From assembly GCF_054482525.1 (NCBI RefSeq), contig NZ_CM137006.1: 64,000 nt of DNA. One strand, written 5' to 3'. Numbering within the stretch: position 1 is the stretch's first letter; each line of letters starts with the position of its first letter. Both the position numbers and the translations under genes were made by a program. The notes under the pieces were generated by a model. That model ran no database searches. It saw nothing but the letters and a program-made list of their open reading frames with translations, and had not been told where the DNA came from. Positions 8,809 to 14,913 of the stretch are shown here, piece by piece.

Positions 8809-10017
8809 ATGTTAAAAGTGGAAATGTTATCCACCGGGGATGAAGTGTTACACGGGCAAATCGTTGACACTAACGCTGCCTGGCTGGCCGATTTTTTCTT
8901 TCATCAGGGGTTGCCTTTAACTCGCCGCAATACGGTGGGGGATAACCTTGATGACTTAGTCACCATTCTTCGCGAACGTAGTCAGCACGCCGATGTGCTG
9001 ATCGTTAACGGCGGGCTGGGGCCGACCAGTGATGATTTAAGCGCACTCGCCGCTGCGACAGCAAAAGGTGAAGGCCTGGTGTTGCATGAAGCCTGGCTCA
9101 AAGAGATGGAACGCTATTTCCACGAACGTGGACGAGTAATGGCACCGAGCAACCGTAAACAAGCGGAGCTACCTGCCAGTGCTGAATTTATCAATAACCC
9201 GGTAGGCACCGCCTGTGGTTTTGCCGTGCAGCTTAATCGTTGCCTGATGTTCTTTACCCCCGGCGTACCGTCAGAATTTAAGGTGATGGTCGAGCACGAA
9301 ATCCTGCCGCGTCTGCGCGAGCGTTTTTCTTTACCACAGCCGCCGGTTTGTCTGCGTTTAACTACCTTTGGTCGTTCGGAAAGCGATCTGGCACAAAGCC
9401 TGGACACTCTACAACTGCCGCCGGGCGTAACAATGGGCTATCGCTCCTCAATGCCTATCATCGAACTGAAACTCACCGGACCGGCAAGCGAGCAACAGGC
9501 GATGGAAAAACTGTGGCTGGACGTTAAACGTGTTGCCGGACAGAGCGTGATTTTCGAAGGCACCGAAGGACTGCCCGCGCAGATCAGTCGCGAATTGCAA
9601 AACCGCCAGTTCAGCCTGACGTTGAGCGAGCAATTCACCAGCGGTTTATTGGCTTTGCAACTTTCTCGCGCAGGTGCTCCATTGCTGGCGTGTGAAGTGG
9701 TTCCTTCACAGGAAGAAACCCTGGCGCAAACTGCGCACTGGATTACAGAACGGCGGGCCAACCATTTTGCCGGGCTGGCACTGGCTGTTTCGGGTTTCGA
9801 GAACGAGCATCTCAACTTTGCGCTAGCCACGCCAGATGGCACTTTCGCTCTGCGTGTACGTTTCAGCACTACACGCTACAGCCTGGCTATCCGTCAGGAA
9901 GTGTGCGCAATGATGGCACTGAATATGCTGCGCCGTTGGTTAAACGGCCAGGACATTGCCAGTGAGCATGGCTGGATTGAGGTTGTTGAGTCCATGACCT
10001 TATCCAGTGCGCCGTAA
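8809..10017 (+). CDS. yfaY: CinA-like competence/damage-inducible protein YfaY
   Basis: 402-aa ORF beginning MLKVEMLSTGDEVLHGQIVDTNAAWLADFF...; stop is 3 nt before the IS left-end hairpin, so the last codons may be IS-derived. Confidence 0.85.
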   Translation: MLKVEMLSTGDEVLHGQIVDTNAAWLADFFFHQGLPLTRRNTVGDNLDDLVTILRERSQHADVLIVNGGLGPTSDDLSALAAATAKGEGLVLHEAWLKEMERYFHERGRVMAPSNRKQAELPASAEFINNPVGTACGFAVQLNRCLMFFTPGVPSEFKVMVEHEILPRLRERFSLPQPPVCLRLTTFGRSESDLAQSLDTLQLPPGVTMGYRSSMPIIELKLTGPASEQQAMEKLWLDVKRVAGQSVIFEGTEGLPAQISRELQNRQFSLTLSEQFTSGLLALQLSRAGAPLLACEVVPSQEETLAQTAHWITERRANHFAGLALAVSGFENEHLNFALATPDGTFALRVRFSTTRYSLAIRQEVCAMMALNMLRRWLNGQDIASEHGWIEVVESMTLSSAP

Positions 10018-10492
10018 AACCCCGTCCTTCAGGGCGGGGATATAAGGCGCGGTTTTCCACCTGACCAGGTGTTTGCTGTTGTTCAATGTATTGGCGGATG
10101 ACGGATATTGGCGCACCTCCGCAGCTACTGGCAAAATAGCCAGGACTCCACAAAACGCCTTTGTAGTAATACCTGACAGCAATATCTGGTCGATCTCGTC
10201 GCAGAAACCTATTCGATATGCCTTTGAGGCTGTTTACCAGACTGAATATCGCCAGTTTTGGAGGATAGTTAATTAACAAATGGACGTGATCTGGTTCGCC
10301 ATCCATTTCAATCAGTTCAGCTTCAAAATCAGCACATACATTTGAAAAGTAAGTGCGTAGTTTTTCTGTCGCGTCATGGTCAAAAATCTGGCGTCGGTAT
10401 TTGGTGACAAAGACCCGGTGAACATGCATCAGGAAAACACAATGCCTTCCACGCCGGATATCGGTTTCTTTTTTCACAGACCAAAGTATCAT
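9887..10492 (-). CDS. tnpA: IS200/IS605 Y1 (HUH) transposase TnpA, ORF extended past the element end
   Basis: Translation has the HUH motif (DHVHLLINYPPK) and catalytic-Tyr helix (VIRQYIEQQ); the ORF continues about 50 codons further, through the left-end hairpin and antisense to the yfaY 3' end. Confidence 0.75.
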   Translation of the reverse strand: MILWSVKKETDIRRGRHCVFLMHVHRVFVTKYRRQIFDHDATEKLRTYFSNVCADFEAELIEMDGEPDHVHLLINYPPKLAIFSLVNSLKGISNRFLRRDRPDIAVRYYYKGVLWSPGYFASSCGGAPISVIRQYIEQQQTPGQVENRALYPRPEGRGFTAHWIRSWTQQPQSSHAHWQCPGRLTNGAAYSVPSLRTLPDG

Positions 10493-11751
10493 TTGGCCTG
10501 TGAAACGACTACAGGCATTTAAATTCCAGTTAAGACCCGGTGGTCAACAGGAGCGTGAAATGAGGCGCTTCGCAGGCGCATGTCGTTTCGTTTTCAATCG
10601 TGCTCTGGCACGTCAGAATGAGAATCATGAGGCCGGTAATAAATACATCCCTTACGGGAAAATGGCTTCCTGGCTGGTTGAGTGGAAAAACGCCACTGAA
10701 ACGCAATGGCTTAAAGATGCCCCCTCACAGCCATTGCAACAGTCACTGAAAGACCTTGAGCGGGCTTACAAAAACTTCTTCCAGAATCGGGCTGCTTTTC
10801 CCCGATTCAAAAAGCGGGGACAGAATGATGCATTCCGCTACCCGCAGGGCGTTAAGCTCGATCAGGAAAACAGCCGTATTTTTCTGCCGAAACTTGGCTG
10901 GATGCGCTACCGGAACAGCCGTCAGGTCACGGGTGTTGTAAAAAATGTCACTGTCAGCCAGTCCTGCGGTAAGTGGTACATCAGTATTCAGACAGAAAGT
11001 GAAGTATCAACTCCGGATCACCCTTCAGCATCAATGGTCGGGCTGGATGCTGGCGTGGCTAAACTCGCCACGCTGTCAGATGGCACAGTCTTTGAGCCTG
11101 TAAACAGTTTTCAGAAAAACCAGAAGACGCTGGCGAGACTTCAGCGACAGTTAAGCCGCAAGGTCAAATTCAGCAACAACTGGCAGAAGCAGAAACGCAA
11201 AATACAGCGACTGCATTCCTGTATCGCAAATATCCGCAGGGACTACCTTCACAAAGTCACAACGACCGTCAGCAAAAACCACGCAATGATAGTCATTGAG
11301 GATTTGAAGGTCAGCAACATGTCAAAGTCAGCAGCGGGTACGGTCAGCCAGCCGGGGCGCAATGTCCGGGCAAAATCAGGTTTAAACCGTTCGATACTGG
11401 ATCAGGGCTGGTATGAAATGCGCCGCCAGCTTGAGTACAAGCAGCTCTGGCGTGGCGGTCAGGTGCTTGCTGTTCCGCCAGCGTACACAAGCCAGCGTTG
11501 CACGTGCTGTGGTCATACAGCGAAAGAAAATCGCCTGTCACAAAGTCAATTCAGATGCCAGGTATGTGGATATACAGCGAACGCCGATGTAAATGGCGCT
11601 CGTAACATTTTAGCGGCGGGGCACGCCGTTCTTGCCTGTGGAGGGATGGTGCAGTCAGGCCGCTCGTTGAAGCAGGAACCCACCGAAATGATTCAGGCGA
11701 CAGCCTGAACGTAGCAGGGATCCACGTTCTTCAGGGCGTGGAGGATGTCAA
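10001..11751 (+). mobile_element. IS200/IS605-family insertion sequence (divergent tnpA + tnpB); boundaries approximate (about +/-20 bp)
   Basis: Y1 transposase and TnpB ORFs bracketed by two similar subterminal hairpins on the same strand: ccccgtccttcagggcgggg (10020..10039) and ccacgttcttcagggcgtgg (11722..11741); rhmT homology resumes about 10 nt after the second hairpin. Confidence 0.8.
10500..11708 (+). CDS. tnpB: TnpB (IS605 OrfB family; RNA-guided RuvC-like endonuclease)
   Basis: 402-aa ORF with GTG start; RuvC-I (VGLDAGV), RuvC-II (IVIEDLKV), zinc finger CTCCGH...CQVCGY and RuvC-III (DVNGARNI) motifs all present. Confidence 0.85.
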
Positions 11752-11767
11752 GTTGGCGCTGTATGTG
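11560..11767 (+). ncRNA. Predicted TnpB-associated omega/reRNA (tnpB 3' end + right-end hairpin + about 16-nt flank-derived guide)
   Basis: Placed by analogy with characterised IS200/IS605 TnpB systems; the right-end hairpin is seen in sequence, the RNA extent is inferred. Confidence 0.3.
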
Positions 11768-12907
11768 CTGGCGTTTCTCGACCGTTCGAATATCGGTTTT
11801 GCCAAACAGACCTACCAGATTGATACCGGGCTGAGTAATGAAGCTTATGCGCTGGGAGCAGGCATTTTCTTTGTGGTATATGCGTTTCTGGGTGTTCCGG
11901 CGAATCTTTTGATGCGCAAACTGGGGGCAAGAACCTGGATTGGTACGACAACACTGCTGTGGGGATTTCTTTCGGCAGCCATGGCATGGGCCGATACTGA
12001 AGCGAAATTTCTGATCGTTCGCACTCTGCTTGGTGCTGCGGAGGCCGGGTTCTTCCCTGGTATGATTTATCTCACCTCGCAATGGTTTCCGCAGCGTAAT
12101 CGCGCCAGCATTATGGGGCTGTTCTATATGGGTGCACCGCTGGCGTTAACACTGGGATCACCGCTTTCCGGCGCGCTGCTGGAGATGCATGGATTTATGG
12201 GGCATCCCGGCTGGTTCTGGATGTTTGTGATTGAAGGATTGCTGGCAGTCGGCGCTGGGGTATTCACATTCTTTTGGCTTGATGACACACCGGAGCAGGC
12301 ACGTTTTCTGAGTAAACAAGAAAAAACGTTGCTTATCAATCAACTGGCAAGTGAAGAACAACAGAAAGTGACTTCTCGATTGAGCGATGCGCTGCGTAAT
12401 GGCCGAGTCTGGCAACTGGCGATTATCTACCTGACCATTCAGGTGGCGGTTTACGGATTAATTTTCTTCCTGCCGACCCAGGTTGCTGCATTGCTGGGGA
12501 CAAAAGTGGGCTTTACGGCGTCGGTGGTCACCGCCATTCCGTGGGTTGCGGTCTTGTTTGGGACCTGGCTTATTCCGCGCTATTCCGATAAAACCGGCGA
12601 ACGGCGTAATGTCGCAGCGCTGTGTGTTGCAGCCATCGGGTTTATTGCCGTGCAGCCGGTGTTCTGGACGATGCCGACACAACTTCTTTCCGGTACGGCG
12701 CTGGCTGCGGGGATTGGTTTTATAAACCTGTTTGGTGCAGTGGGCGGGTTTATTGCCCCGATCCTGCGCGTGAAAGCAGAAACGTTATTTTCCAGCGATG
12801 CGGCGGGATTACTGACGCTGGCAGCGGTGGCGGTCATCGGTTCACTGATTATTTTCACTCTGCGTGTAAATCACACTGTTGCGCAGACCGACGTGGCACA
12901 TCATTAA
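11752..12907 (+). pseudogene. rhmT: 5'-truncated L-rhamnonate MFS transporter rhmT (yfaV), missing about 40 N-terminal codons
   Basis: Translation from ...LALYVLAFLDRSNIGFAKQTYQIDTGL... matches RhmT from about residue 45 onward; sequence upstream is IS. An in-frame GTG inside the IS end (11738) could drive a fusion product. Confidence 0.75.
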
Positions 12908-12923
12908 TAGGTTAAGGAACACC

Positions 12924-13727
12924 ATGAACGCATTATTAACCAATCCCTTTAAAGAACGTTTACGCAAGGGCGAAGTGCAAATTGGTCTGTGGTTAAGCTC
13001 AACGACTGCCTATATGGCAGAAATTGCCGCTACTTCCGGTTATGATTGGTTGCTGATTGACGGGGAGCATGCGCCAAACACCATTCAGGATCTTTATCAC
13101 CAGCTACAGGCGGTAGCGCCCTATGCCAGCCAACCCGTGATCCGTCCGGTGGAAGGCAGTAAGCCGCTGATTAAACAAGTCCTGGATATTGGCGCACAAA
13201 CTCTACTGATCCCGATGGTCGATACTGCCGATCAGGCACGTCAGGTGGTGTCTGCCACGCGCTATCCTCCCTACGGTGAGCGTGGTGTTGGGGCCAGTGT
13301 GGCACGGGCTGCGCGCTGGGGACGCATTGAGAATTACATGGCGCAAGTCAACGATTCGCTTTGTCTGTTGGTGCAGGTGGAAAGTAAAACGGCACTGGAT
13401 AACCTGGACGAAATCCTCGACGTCGAAGGGATTGATGGCGTGTTTATTGGACCTGCGGATCTTTCTGCGTCGTTGGGCTACCCGGATAACGCCGGGCACC
13501 CGGAAGTGCAGCGAATTATTGAAACCAGTATTCGGCGGATCCGTGCTGCGGGTAAAGCGGCTGGTTTTCTGGCTGTGGCTCCTGATATGGCGCAGCAATG
13601 CCTGGCGTGGGGAGCGAACTTTGTCGCTGTTGGCGTTGACACGATGCTCTACAGCGATGCCCTGGATCAACGACTGGCGATGTTTAAATCAGGCAAAAAT
13701 GGGCCACGCATAAAAGGTAGTTATTGA
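12924..13727 (+). CDS. rhmA: 2-keto-3-deoxy-L-rhamnonate aldolase RhmA (YfaU)
   Basis: ATG at 12924 gives [26 protein letters not shown]..., 267 aa. Confidence 0.88.
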
Positions 13728-13767: not shown

Positions 13768-13941
13768 TTAGTGGTTATTCGCTGCCAGATCGGCTTCGCT
13801 TAGCTGGGTGGCCGCGAGCACCAGGTCACGATCAATGCCCTGTTCCAGCATGCGCAAAGCAATTTTAATGGCTTGTTCATGCATGCCTTCCTGCCAGCCA
13901 ATTTGGTGTCCTTCCTGCCGTAGCCGTTCAGCAATAGTCAT
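13768..13941 (-). CDS. ypaA: YpaA: free-standing copy of the Rpn C-terminal small domain (57 aa)
   Basis: Hand-translated [57 protein letters not shown]; its 5' region, including the SD, is a near-identical duplicate of the rpnB 3' region. Below the 60-aa track cutoff. Confidence 0.7.
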   Translation of the reverse strand: MTIAERLRQEGHQIGWQEGMHEQAIKIALRMLEQGIDRDLVLAATQLSEADLAANNH

Positions 13942-13953
13942 TAATCTCTCCTT

Positions 13954-14913
13954 TTAATAACAGTTCGGAATATCAGCATCAGTGAGTTGGGTTGTCGCCA
14001 GCACAATCTCACGTTCAAAGCCCTGTTCCAGCATGCGCAAGGCAATTTTAATGGCTTGTTCATGCATACCTTCTACTTTGCCTTTCTGCAAACCCTCCAA
14101 CTTCCCCTCCTGCCAACCTTCAATCTTACCCTCCTGCCAGCCAATTTGATGTCCTTCCTGCCGCAGCCGTTCAGCAATAGTCATTAATCTCTCCTTTTGT
14201 AGTGGTGAACGTTCGGCAATCTCCTCAATAAAACGGGTGAAACGGGAGGTATCGCCGCATTGCAGCAGATAATTAAACAGCGTTTGTAGCTGGCTGTCAT
14301 TAGTGAAGCCTCTAACCAAAAGCGTGGTGATCCTGTCGACCATACCGATTAAATCGCGGTCGCGAATATGCTTTTGAATCAGTTCCAGCAGAGCTATACG
14401 CCGATGTTGCATGATCTCATCGTCAGGTACGATGGTGATATCCACCAACGGAAAAGCTTCGGTGTACAACTGCCGGGCAAGTTGCGGATCGTCAAACTCA
14501 TCCAGCCAGTTGAGTGAGTACGGGTAAGGCGAGGTTTCGCCATGATAAAACAGCAACGGCACCACCAGCGGGACTCTGTCATAGCCTTTGTCCAGGTGAC
14601 GCTGCATGGCGGCAGTGGCATAGCGCATTAGCCGAAAAGCCATATTCTTTTCTGCAGAGCTTTGATGTTCAATCACGCAGTAGATATAACCGTCACCGTC
14701 GCTGGTTTCCACGGACCACAAAACATCCGAGTAGTAAGCGCGTAAACTTTTTTCAATAAAACTGGTGGGTTCCAGGCGTAAGGTTTGCAGGTTGCAAAGC
14801 TTGCGCAGCGGCTCTGGTAGATGTATTTCCAGAAAATCCCGTGCGGTTTCGGGTGTGAACATAAAGGTTTTAAACACCGCATCATGCGGGGAGGAGGTTG
14901 TTGATTCGGTCAT
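13954..14913 (-). CDS. rpnB: Recombination-promoting nuclease RpnB (YfaD; PD-(D/E)XK / YhgA-like)
   Basis: 319-aa ORF beginning [36 protein letters not shown]... with C-terminal [17 protein letters not shown] repeats. Confidence 0.85.

Follow-up and report, generated by a model that had tools for sequence, protein, structure and literature searches.

In the 64,000-nucleotide stretch of DNA analysed here (hereafter the window; NCBI RefSeq assembly GCF_054482525.1, contig NZ_CM137006.1), a full-length copy of the insertion sequence (IS) IS609, a member of the IS200/IS605 family, stands in for 2348 bp of the ancestral L-rhamnonate (rhm) locus of Escherichia coli. In strain K-12, both endpoints of the segment that is missing from the window lie directly 3' of a TTAT tetranucleotide on the IS609 top strand. 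Since both endpoints are same-strand TTAT target sites of the element, the breakpoints are non-random and point to use of the specificity of IS609, and the deletion was very probably made through that specificity, by way of either two copies or a single step. The presence of TTAT at both deletion ends is the new detail and the one point of specialist interest in this locus. An initial annotation of the same DNA had proposed an insertion followed by an adjacent deletion; this proposal is supported in general and is refined by the TTAT endpoints, while the order of events, like the route, is what we infer.

The gene order in the window is nudI, yfaZ, yfaY, tnpA (minus strand), tnpB (plus strand), a remnant of rhmT, rhmA, rpnE, and glpC. 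At the corresponding place K-12 carries yfaY-rhmR(yfaX)-rhmD-rhmT(yfaV)-rhmA(yfaU), as the initial annotation had stated, and CFT073 has the same order. The altered locus comprises the following features, with coordinates here and below given as positions of the window.

8809..10017, plus strand: yfaY (CinA-family), the final 14 nt of which, including the stop codon, come from the IS609 left end
10004..11751, top strand corresponding to the window plus strand: full-length IS609 (IS200/IS605 family), 1748 bp, delimited by alignment of copies and empty sites
11752..12907, plus strand: remnant of rhmT (yfaV), with codons 1-21 gone and, independently, 72 bp lost in frame at about 12620-12623
12924..13727, plus strand: rhmA (yfaU), 2-keto-3-deoxy-L-rhamnonate aldolase, full length

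Alignment with K-12 shows that the 2348-bp lost segment consists of two yfaY codons and the stop codon, the intergenic region, rhmR, rhmD, and rhmT codons 1-21, so that rhmA is the sole intact gene remaining of the rhmR-rhmD-rhmT-rhmA cluster. The element had been described as following yfaY immediately; the two are indeed adjacent, but the insertion actually lies within the last yfaY codons. Because IS609 replaces CTGTCTGA after GACCTTAT, the C-terminus of YfaY reads ...TLSSAP* in the window versus ...TLSV* in K-12. Further, the earlier estimate that rhmT lacks its first ~40 codons is too high, as the 5' loss amounts to 21 codons; the larger figure arose because this truncation was summed with an unrelated in-frame loss of residues 310-333. 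The E. coli strain PCN033 is 100% identical to the window across the queried 2.6 kb.

The segment 10001..11751 was tested for homology to IS200/IS605 elements, the family to which it had first been assigned, and such homology was found in the form of Y1_Tnp and OrfB_IS605 Pfam domains and of DNA identity to the K-12 feature "insertion sequence:IS609" (NC_000913.3), from which the window element differs at 41 of 1748 positions (97.7% identity over 1748/1748 bp). The ISfinder naming convention treats elements that share roughly at least 95% nucleotide identity as the same element, and the element in the window is a complete copy of the already known and already annotated IS609. In K-12, the 1748-bp IS609 lies between ydcL and ydcO and contains yncK (a tnpA pseudogene) and insQ (tnpB). 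The two copies are the same in length, layout, ends (TTAT/CC...GGATGTCAA/, with slashes marking the limits of the element), hairpins, and loss of the tnpA stop codon; they differ in that the K-12 copy occupies another locus and has an additional internal stop in tnpA, and in that the 2348-bp deletion goes with the window copy. The layout is IS605-like, with the left end followed by an outward-facing tnpA, tnpB, and the right end, and both the open reading frames (ORFs) and the annotation bear out the initial placement of tnpA on the minus strand and tnpB on the plus strand. Population counts in this study refer to 5426 complete E. coli genomes, in which IS609 has a median of ~2 matching places per genome.

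The exact limits of IS609 were set by alignment of seven copies from six loci together with the empty sites in K-12. At the left end all seven copies read TTAT/CC, then A or G, then GTGCGCCGTAAAACCCC (that is, TTAT/CC(A/G)GTGCGCC), and at the right end all seven read ...GGAGGATGTCAA/, terminating in GGATGTCAA/, with unrelated sequence outside in both cases. The true span is therefore 10004..11751 rather than one starting at 10001, as first given, because the TTAT at 10000..10003 belongs to native yfaY. At each of 6 independent loci the left end is preceded by TTAT, which the K-12 empty sites at yfaY, yoaG, ytfA, and yedK contain as well. Comparison with the last three of these sites shows that at yoaG, ytfA, and yedK IS609 simply inserted exactly after TTAT, neither duplicating nor removing any sequence. 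Both TTAT and TCAA were common left-end and right-end cleavage motifs, respectively, in a survey of TnpB-bearing elements (PMC9956272). The end features of the window copy are as follows.

10000..10003, plus strand: TTAT, IS609 target and left cleavage motif, part of native yfaY and kept upon insertion
10016..10019, plus strand: AAAA, putative left guide tetranucleotide directly 5' of the hairpin foot, so assigned by analogy with IS608
10020..10039, plus strand: left-end subterminal hairpin CCCCGTCCTTCAGGGCGGGG, with a perfect 8-bp stem and a TTCA loop
11722..11741, plus strand: right-end subterminal hairpin CCACGTTCTTCAGGGCGTGG, with an imperfect stem that has two T.G positions in the window copy
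11748..11751, plus strand: TCAA, right cleavage motif, ending 10 nt 3' of the hairpin foot and invariant in 7 copies

With these limits, the left junction of the deletion follows GACCTTAT in yfaY, where K-12 reads GACCTTAT/CTGTCTGA (...CCTTAT/CTGTC...), and the right junction precedes GTTGGCGCTG in rhmT, where K-12 reads CCGTTTAT/GTTGGCG (...GTTTAT/GTTGG...) at codons 20-21. The local top-strand frequency of TTAT is 0.0066 per position, and 15 such sites are present in the deleted segment. A random endpoint would thus fall exactly 3' of TTAT with a chance of only ~0.7%, which makes it improbable that an IS609 insertion at the yfaY TTAT was later followed by illegitimate recombination or break repair that removed the neighboring DNA, with the far TTAT being coincidental. 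Deletions independent of any IS are known at this locus (between 12-bp repeats in rhmR and rhmT, of 72 bp within rhmT, and from yfaY to rhmA), as such an explanation would expect. Nevertheless, the other break coincides with the final base of the right end, so that TCAA is preserved, and no mechanism other than a transposase is known to favor that position.

The shared tetranucleotide could also have served as a 4-bp microhomology, such that slippage between the two TTAT repeats first produced the deletion and IS609 later entered the TTAT that remained. Deletions between short repeats do happen at the rhm locus. However, the IS-free junction that this sequence of events predicts, ...GACCTTAT/GTTGGCG... 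in one piece, occurs in 0 of 5426 genomes; 80 apparent matches to a clean junction were rejected, as they represent a different deletion between 12-bp repeats. Moreover, TTAT occurs at ~0.0047 per base per strand, or ~47,000 sites per 5-Mb genome, and a chance insertion at one particular site would be very unlikely. A deletion that preceded the insertion is accordingly regarded as even less probable than random breakage next to a resident IS609.

Among routes that draw on the specificity of IS609 itself, the one ranked first, at a little short of an even chance, would involve two IS609 insertions of like orientation, one at each TTAT, after which RecA-type recombination between the 1.75-kb direct repeats would delete one copy and, with it, rhmR, rhmD, and the 5' part of rhmT. 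This two-copy route is put first because every step in it is an established reaction. Several observations weigh against it. Chimeric queries that joined the right end to the K-12 sequence downstream of yfaY, or the rhmT 5' end to the left end, found single-insertion intermediates in 0 of 5426 genomes for each hypothetical junction, and no two-copy state was seen. Additionally, metagenome and species-representative contigs were scanned for exact junctions and returned 0 matches, although these scans had no positive control and constitute a weak negative. A second insertion in the same orientation 2.35 kb away is a priori unlikely, unless hopping is local, because the copy number of IS609 is low. 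Lastly, the two-copy and one-step routes would leave identical products, such that the sequence cannot favor either.

In the one-step route, which is given only slightly lower odds than the two-copy route, a single IS609 would sit at the yfaY TTAT, and TnpA would cut after the TCAA of the right end and after the TTAT that lies 2348 nt downstream, and then exchange strands. The reaction would take place on an exposed single-stranded lagging-strand template, with the left-end guide presenting the distant TTAT instead of its own flanking TTAT; the 3'-OH of the right end would be joined to GTTGG..., and the rhmR-rhmD segment would be released as a single-strand circle. Such a reaction amounts to integration chemistry in cis and would be a site-specific Y1 analogue of the "adjacent deletions" of classical IS elements. 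A mirror version is conceivable, in which the insertion into rhmT came first and the exchange occurred between two TTATs presented by left-end guides. The one-step route accounts for top-strand TTAT at both endpoints, it requires only a single insertion and so fits the low copy number of IS609, and, as in IS608, TCAA closes the right end 10 nt beyond the hairpin foot. In IS608 the left-end guide reads the target tetranucleotide in trans, and reactions of a left end plus a target oligonucleotide work in vitro (PMC5027513; PMC3201880). The orientation is also suitable: GC skew in the window is positive (+0.04), which places the IS609 top strand on the lagging-strand template, in line with the lagging-strand preference of IS608 (PMC5027513).

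Against the one-step route, a limited literature search found no report of such a reaction, either in vivo or in vitro. The reaction would have to pass over 14 nearer TTAT sites and would require more than 4 kb of single-stranded DNA, and the left end's own TTAT, only 16 nt off, should out-compete a distant one. The intermediate that it predicts, with the right end beside CTGTCTGA, was found neither in the 5426 genomes nor in the contig scans, which lacked a positive control, and three other IS609 loci (yoaG, ytfA, and yedK) show no such deletions.

A trivial explanation for the junction would be that the IS caused contigs to be collapsed or mis-joined during assembly, with rhmR-rhmD really present. 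This is scarcely credible and is refuted by the distribution of the allele, as an identical IS609 junction occurs in 187 of 5426 genomes, including those of strains 042 and PCN033; these were assembled independently, and rhmR-rhmD is absent from all of them. The contiguous rhmR and rhmD that would have signaled a mis-assembly to the author of the initial annotation are thus missing from every genome with the junction, and within the 64-kb window neither gene yielded a tblastn match. A K-12 rhmR-rhmD probe matches 3980 of the 5426 genomes, and a 3-kb locus probe sorts genomes into 3825 with an intact locus, ~155 with a deletion that joins rhmR and rhmT remnants (rhmR'-'rhmT), 187 with the IS609 allele, and ~1250 with a larger, IS-free deletion. 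Since 3825 and 155 sum to 3980, no genome with the IS609 allele carries rhmR-rhmD elsewhere, which answers, for all 187, the earlier suggestion that the genes be sought at another place in the genome.

The rhmR'-'rhmT deletion in ~155 genomes lies between 12-bp direct repeats (CTGGGAGCAGGC). The deletion in ~1250 genomes (e.g., O104:H4 2011C-3493) starts 64 nt past yfaY and reaches into rhmA; its left break, as read from the K-12 sequence, comes after ...TCCAACC and not after TTAT, and no IS is annotated there. It was considered as a TTAT-ended parallel to the IS609 allele and rejected on the basis of that break. Together these two IS-free deletions remove the locus in ~1400 other genomes, and at least three deletions of independent origin leave ~27% of complete E. 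coli genomes without rhmR-rhmD. In strain MLI114, which has the allele deleted between the 12-bp repeats, another IS200/IS605 element, ISEc46 (with tnpA and tnpB intact), lies within what is left of rhmR. It too was rejected as a parallel case, since it is a simple insertion that does not coincide with a deletion junction.

Comparison of PCN033 with 042 revealed a divergence of 1.8% in the IS, 2.5% in the yfaZ-yfaY flank, and 1.5% in the rhmT flank. Because the divergence of the IS parallels that of its flanks, the IS609 rhm allele is, on these sequence comparisons, old and inherited, having been in place throughout the divergence of the PCN033 and 042 lineages. The second deletion in rhmT has a different distribution. 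This in-frame loss of 72 bp, equal to 24 codons (K-12 RhmT residues 310-333; window ~12600-12625), is flanked by the imperfect short repeats GCAGCGCTG and GTAGCACTG and is present in PCN033 but not in 042, which suggests ongoing decay of an orphaned transporter gene in PCN033. The Prokaryotic Genome Annotation Pipeline (PGAP) calls the truncated rhmT an intact 400-aa "MFS transporter" (coding sequence 11705-12907). The start assigned by PGAP, apparently CTG, lies within the IS609 right end and gives a 4-nt overlap with the tnpB stop codon; the rhmT frame is open for at least 30 codons further upstream, into tnpB.

The two genes of IS609, and the RNA features predicted at and beyond its right end, are listed below.

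10061..10492, minus strand: tnpA (Y1/HUH transposase), with an ORF that extends to 9887 (9887..10492, 201 aa)
10500..11708, plus strand: tnpB (InsQ-type RNA-guided endonuclease), intact, 402 aa
11580..11751, plus strand: predicted omega-RNA scaffold, formed by the tnpB 3' end and the right end, on a weak basis and with a nominal 5' limit
11752..11767, plus strand: predicted omega-RNA guide GTTGGCGCTGTATGTG, the 16 nt adjoining the right end, preceded by TTAT in wild-type rhmT

TnpA matches the complete Pfam Y1_Tnp model (1-121/121, E-value 8.6e-40) and retains both the HUH motif (H69-V-H71) and a catalytic-type Tyr135. Its stop codon has changed from TAG to CAG at 10061..10063, and the ORF therefore continues through the IS609 left end into antisense yfaY to reach 201 aa, which lengthens TnpA by 58 aa at its C-terminus; PGAP marks tnpA as a pseudogene. 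At this position TAG is present in O157 DEC4E and strain 3502, and CAG in the window, 042, K-12, 5264, Z1323, and ET300, so that the stop is polymorphic even within the ytfA locus (O157 DEC4E versus strain 5264). Judged by these sequences, tnpA in most E. coli copies of IS609 would either specify a protein lengthened at its C-terminus or be a pseudogene, with tnpB still open. The window copy is probably immobile, because its tnpA is without a stop codon.

TnpB contains OrfB_IS605 (E-value 2e-34), Cas12f1-like TNB (E-value 6e-24), and HTH_OrfB_IS605 (E-value 3e-14) domains in Pfam, the D-E-D residues in the form of GLDAG(185), IEDL(267), and NADV(363), and a CxxC...CxxC zinc ribbon. Between PCN033 and 042, 20 nucleotide changes in tnpB cause 12 amino-acid changes, and 10 in tnpA cause 7. 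With so many amino-acid changes, constraint on the two genes is weak at most, and tnpB, though open, shows little purifying selection.

Both hairpins that the initial annotation had reported on one strand are present where it placed them, on the plus strand, and the motif has only two matches within the 64-kb window, namely the two IS609 ends. As a DNA fold the left hairpin has an energy of -13.8 kcal/mol (z = -3.6). The right hairpin of the window copy is not significant by energy alone (z = -0.85), owing to its two T.G positions, and it is kept in all seven IS609 copies compared. With both hairpins conserved across the 7 copies, IS609 has the same-strand subterminal hairpins, and the lack of terminal inverted repeats, by which IS200/IS605 elements are recognized. 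The predicted DNA fold also has an outer stem of 5 bp, GCGCC...GGCGC (10009-10013 with 10046-10050), around the left hairpin and the guide region; strain 042 carries a C to T change at 10013, inside this stem.

IS609 resembles IS608 of Helicobacter pylori in encoding a Y1/HUH TnpA and a TnpB, in having subterminal imperfect palindromes on one strand, in inserting 3' of a tetranucleotide (TTAC in IS608 and TTAT in IS609) without duplication, and in the TCAA that closes the right end 10 nt past the hairpin foot. By this analogy IS609 would be of the single-strand "peel-and-paste" type, with TnpA moving the element as a single-strand circle. In IS608 the guide AAAG pairs with TTAC (PMC3201880). 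The bases 5' of the left hairpin co-vary with the last base of the target, being AAAG with C in IS608 and AAAA with T in IS609. The elements differ in that tnpA and tnpB are co-directional in IS608 but divergent (IS605-like) in IS609, and in that the left cleavage site is 19 nt from the hairpin foot in IS608 but 16 nt in IS609.

Classical DDE elements such as IS1, IS10, and IS903 generate adjacent deletions by intramolecular transposition of double-stranded DNA. The rhm allele is like these deletions in that one IS end stays and is joined to a nearby target site while the intervening DNA is lost. A limited literature search returned no equivalent for the Y1 single-strand transposases, and likewise nothing specific on IS609 biology, the activity of InsQ, rhmD with phylogroup, or adjacent deletions by Y1 transposases.

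ISDra2 TnpB and its omega-RNA reportedly form a homing system (said to have been described by Karvelis et al. in 2021). IS609 TnpB has the same domain set as that of ISDra2, and in both elements the tnpB 3' end overlaps the right end. If the analogy extends to function, IS609 would use as its guide the 16 nt that follow the right end (GTTGGCGCTGTATGTG in the window copy), and its target-adjacent motif would be the target motif of the element. Unlike in ISDra2, the guide predicted here matches wild-type rhmT, while the lineage with the deletion has no TTAT beside that sequence. Because GTTGGCGCTGTATGTG is preceded by TTAT in wild-type rhmT, an active TnpB with its omega-RNA would be expected to cleave wild-type rhm alleles that enter the cell, as well as the donor joint left by excision. 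If this is true, repair from the resident allele would copy the IS and the 2.3-kb deletion together, such that the deletion would hitch-hike on transposon homing; this corollary is independent of which route made the deletion.

Rfam matches to the predicted omega-RNA are all below threshold. In the region of the tnpB 3' end and the right end (11635-11764), RAGATH-18 (RF03064) scored 26.5 bits versus the 44.9 needed and HgcC (RF00062) scored 19.1 bits versus the 50 needed, and the RNA fold of the omega-RNA region is mildly better than that of shuffled sequences (z = -1.98). A further sub-threshold match, to sot0042 (RF02656), lies at the IS609 left end (9921-10040). The HgcC and sot0042 alignments take in the end hairpin of the ...TTCAGGGCG... 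type, and the RAGATH-18 match is upstream, in the tnpB 3' end. There are hints in these matches that the RAGATH-18, HgcC, and sot0042 families partly model IS200/IS605 ends or omega-RNAs.

With respect to the host, the genes of the L-rhamnonate cluster are incomplete, since rhmR and rhmD are absent and RhmT is without residues 1-21 and 310-333. From this gene content, the L-rhamnonate pathway is predicted to be unable to function in the lineage that carries the junction, because the regulator (rhmR), the dehydratase (rhmD), and an intact transporter (rhmT) have all been lost. The junction is a practical marker of this lineage, which includes 042 and PCN033 and should be unable to use L-rhamnonate. 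As the locus encodes a dispensable sugar-acid pathway that has been lost repeatedly in E. coli, and as the IS is a known one, this is ordinary strain variation with no significance for general biology. Its modest value to specialists is that of a clean example, from nature, of an IS200/IS605-associated deletion with the element's own target tetranucleotide at both endpoints. A deletion bounded by TTAT constrains how elements of this family remodel genomes, and it suggests a side-reaction of TnpA.

Downstream of rhmA, the rpnE (yfaD) region (13768-14913, minus strand) contains an rpnE of 960 nt (K-12, 900 nt; CFT073, 927 nt), with a repetitive stretch of the GWQEGK(I/L)EG type close to its C-terminus. 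A ypaA-like fragment beside rpnE duplicates the C-terminal sequence of rpnE.

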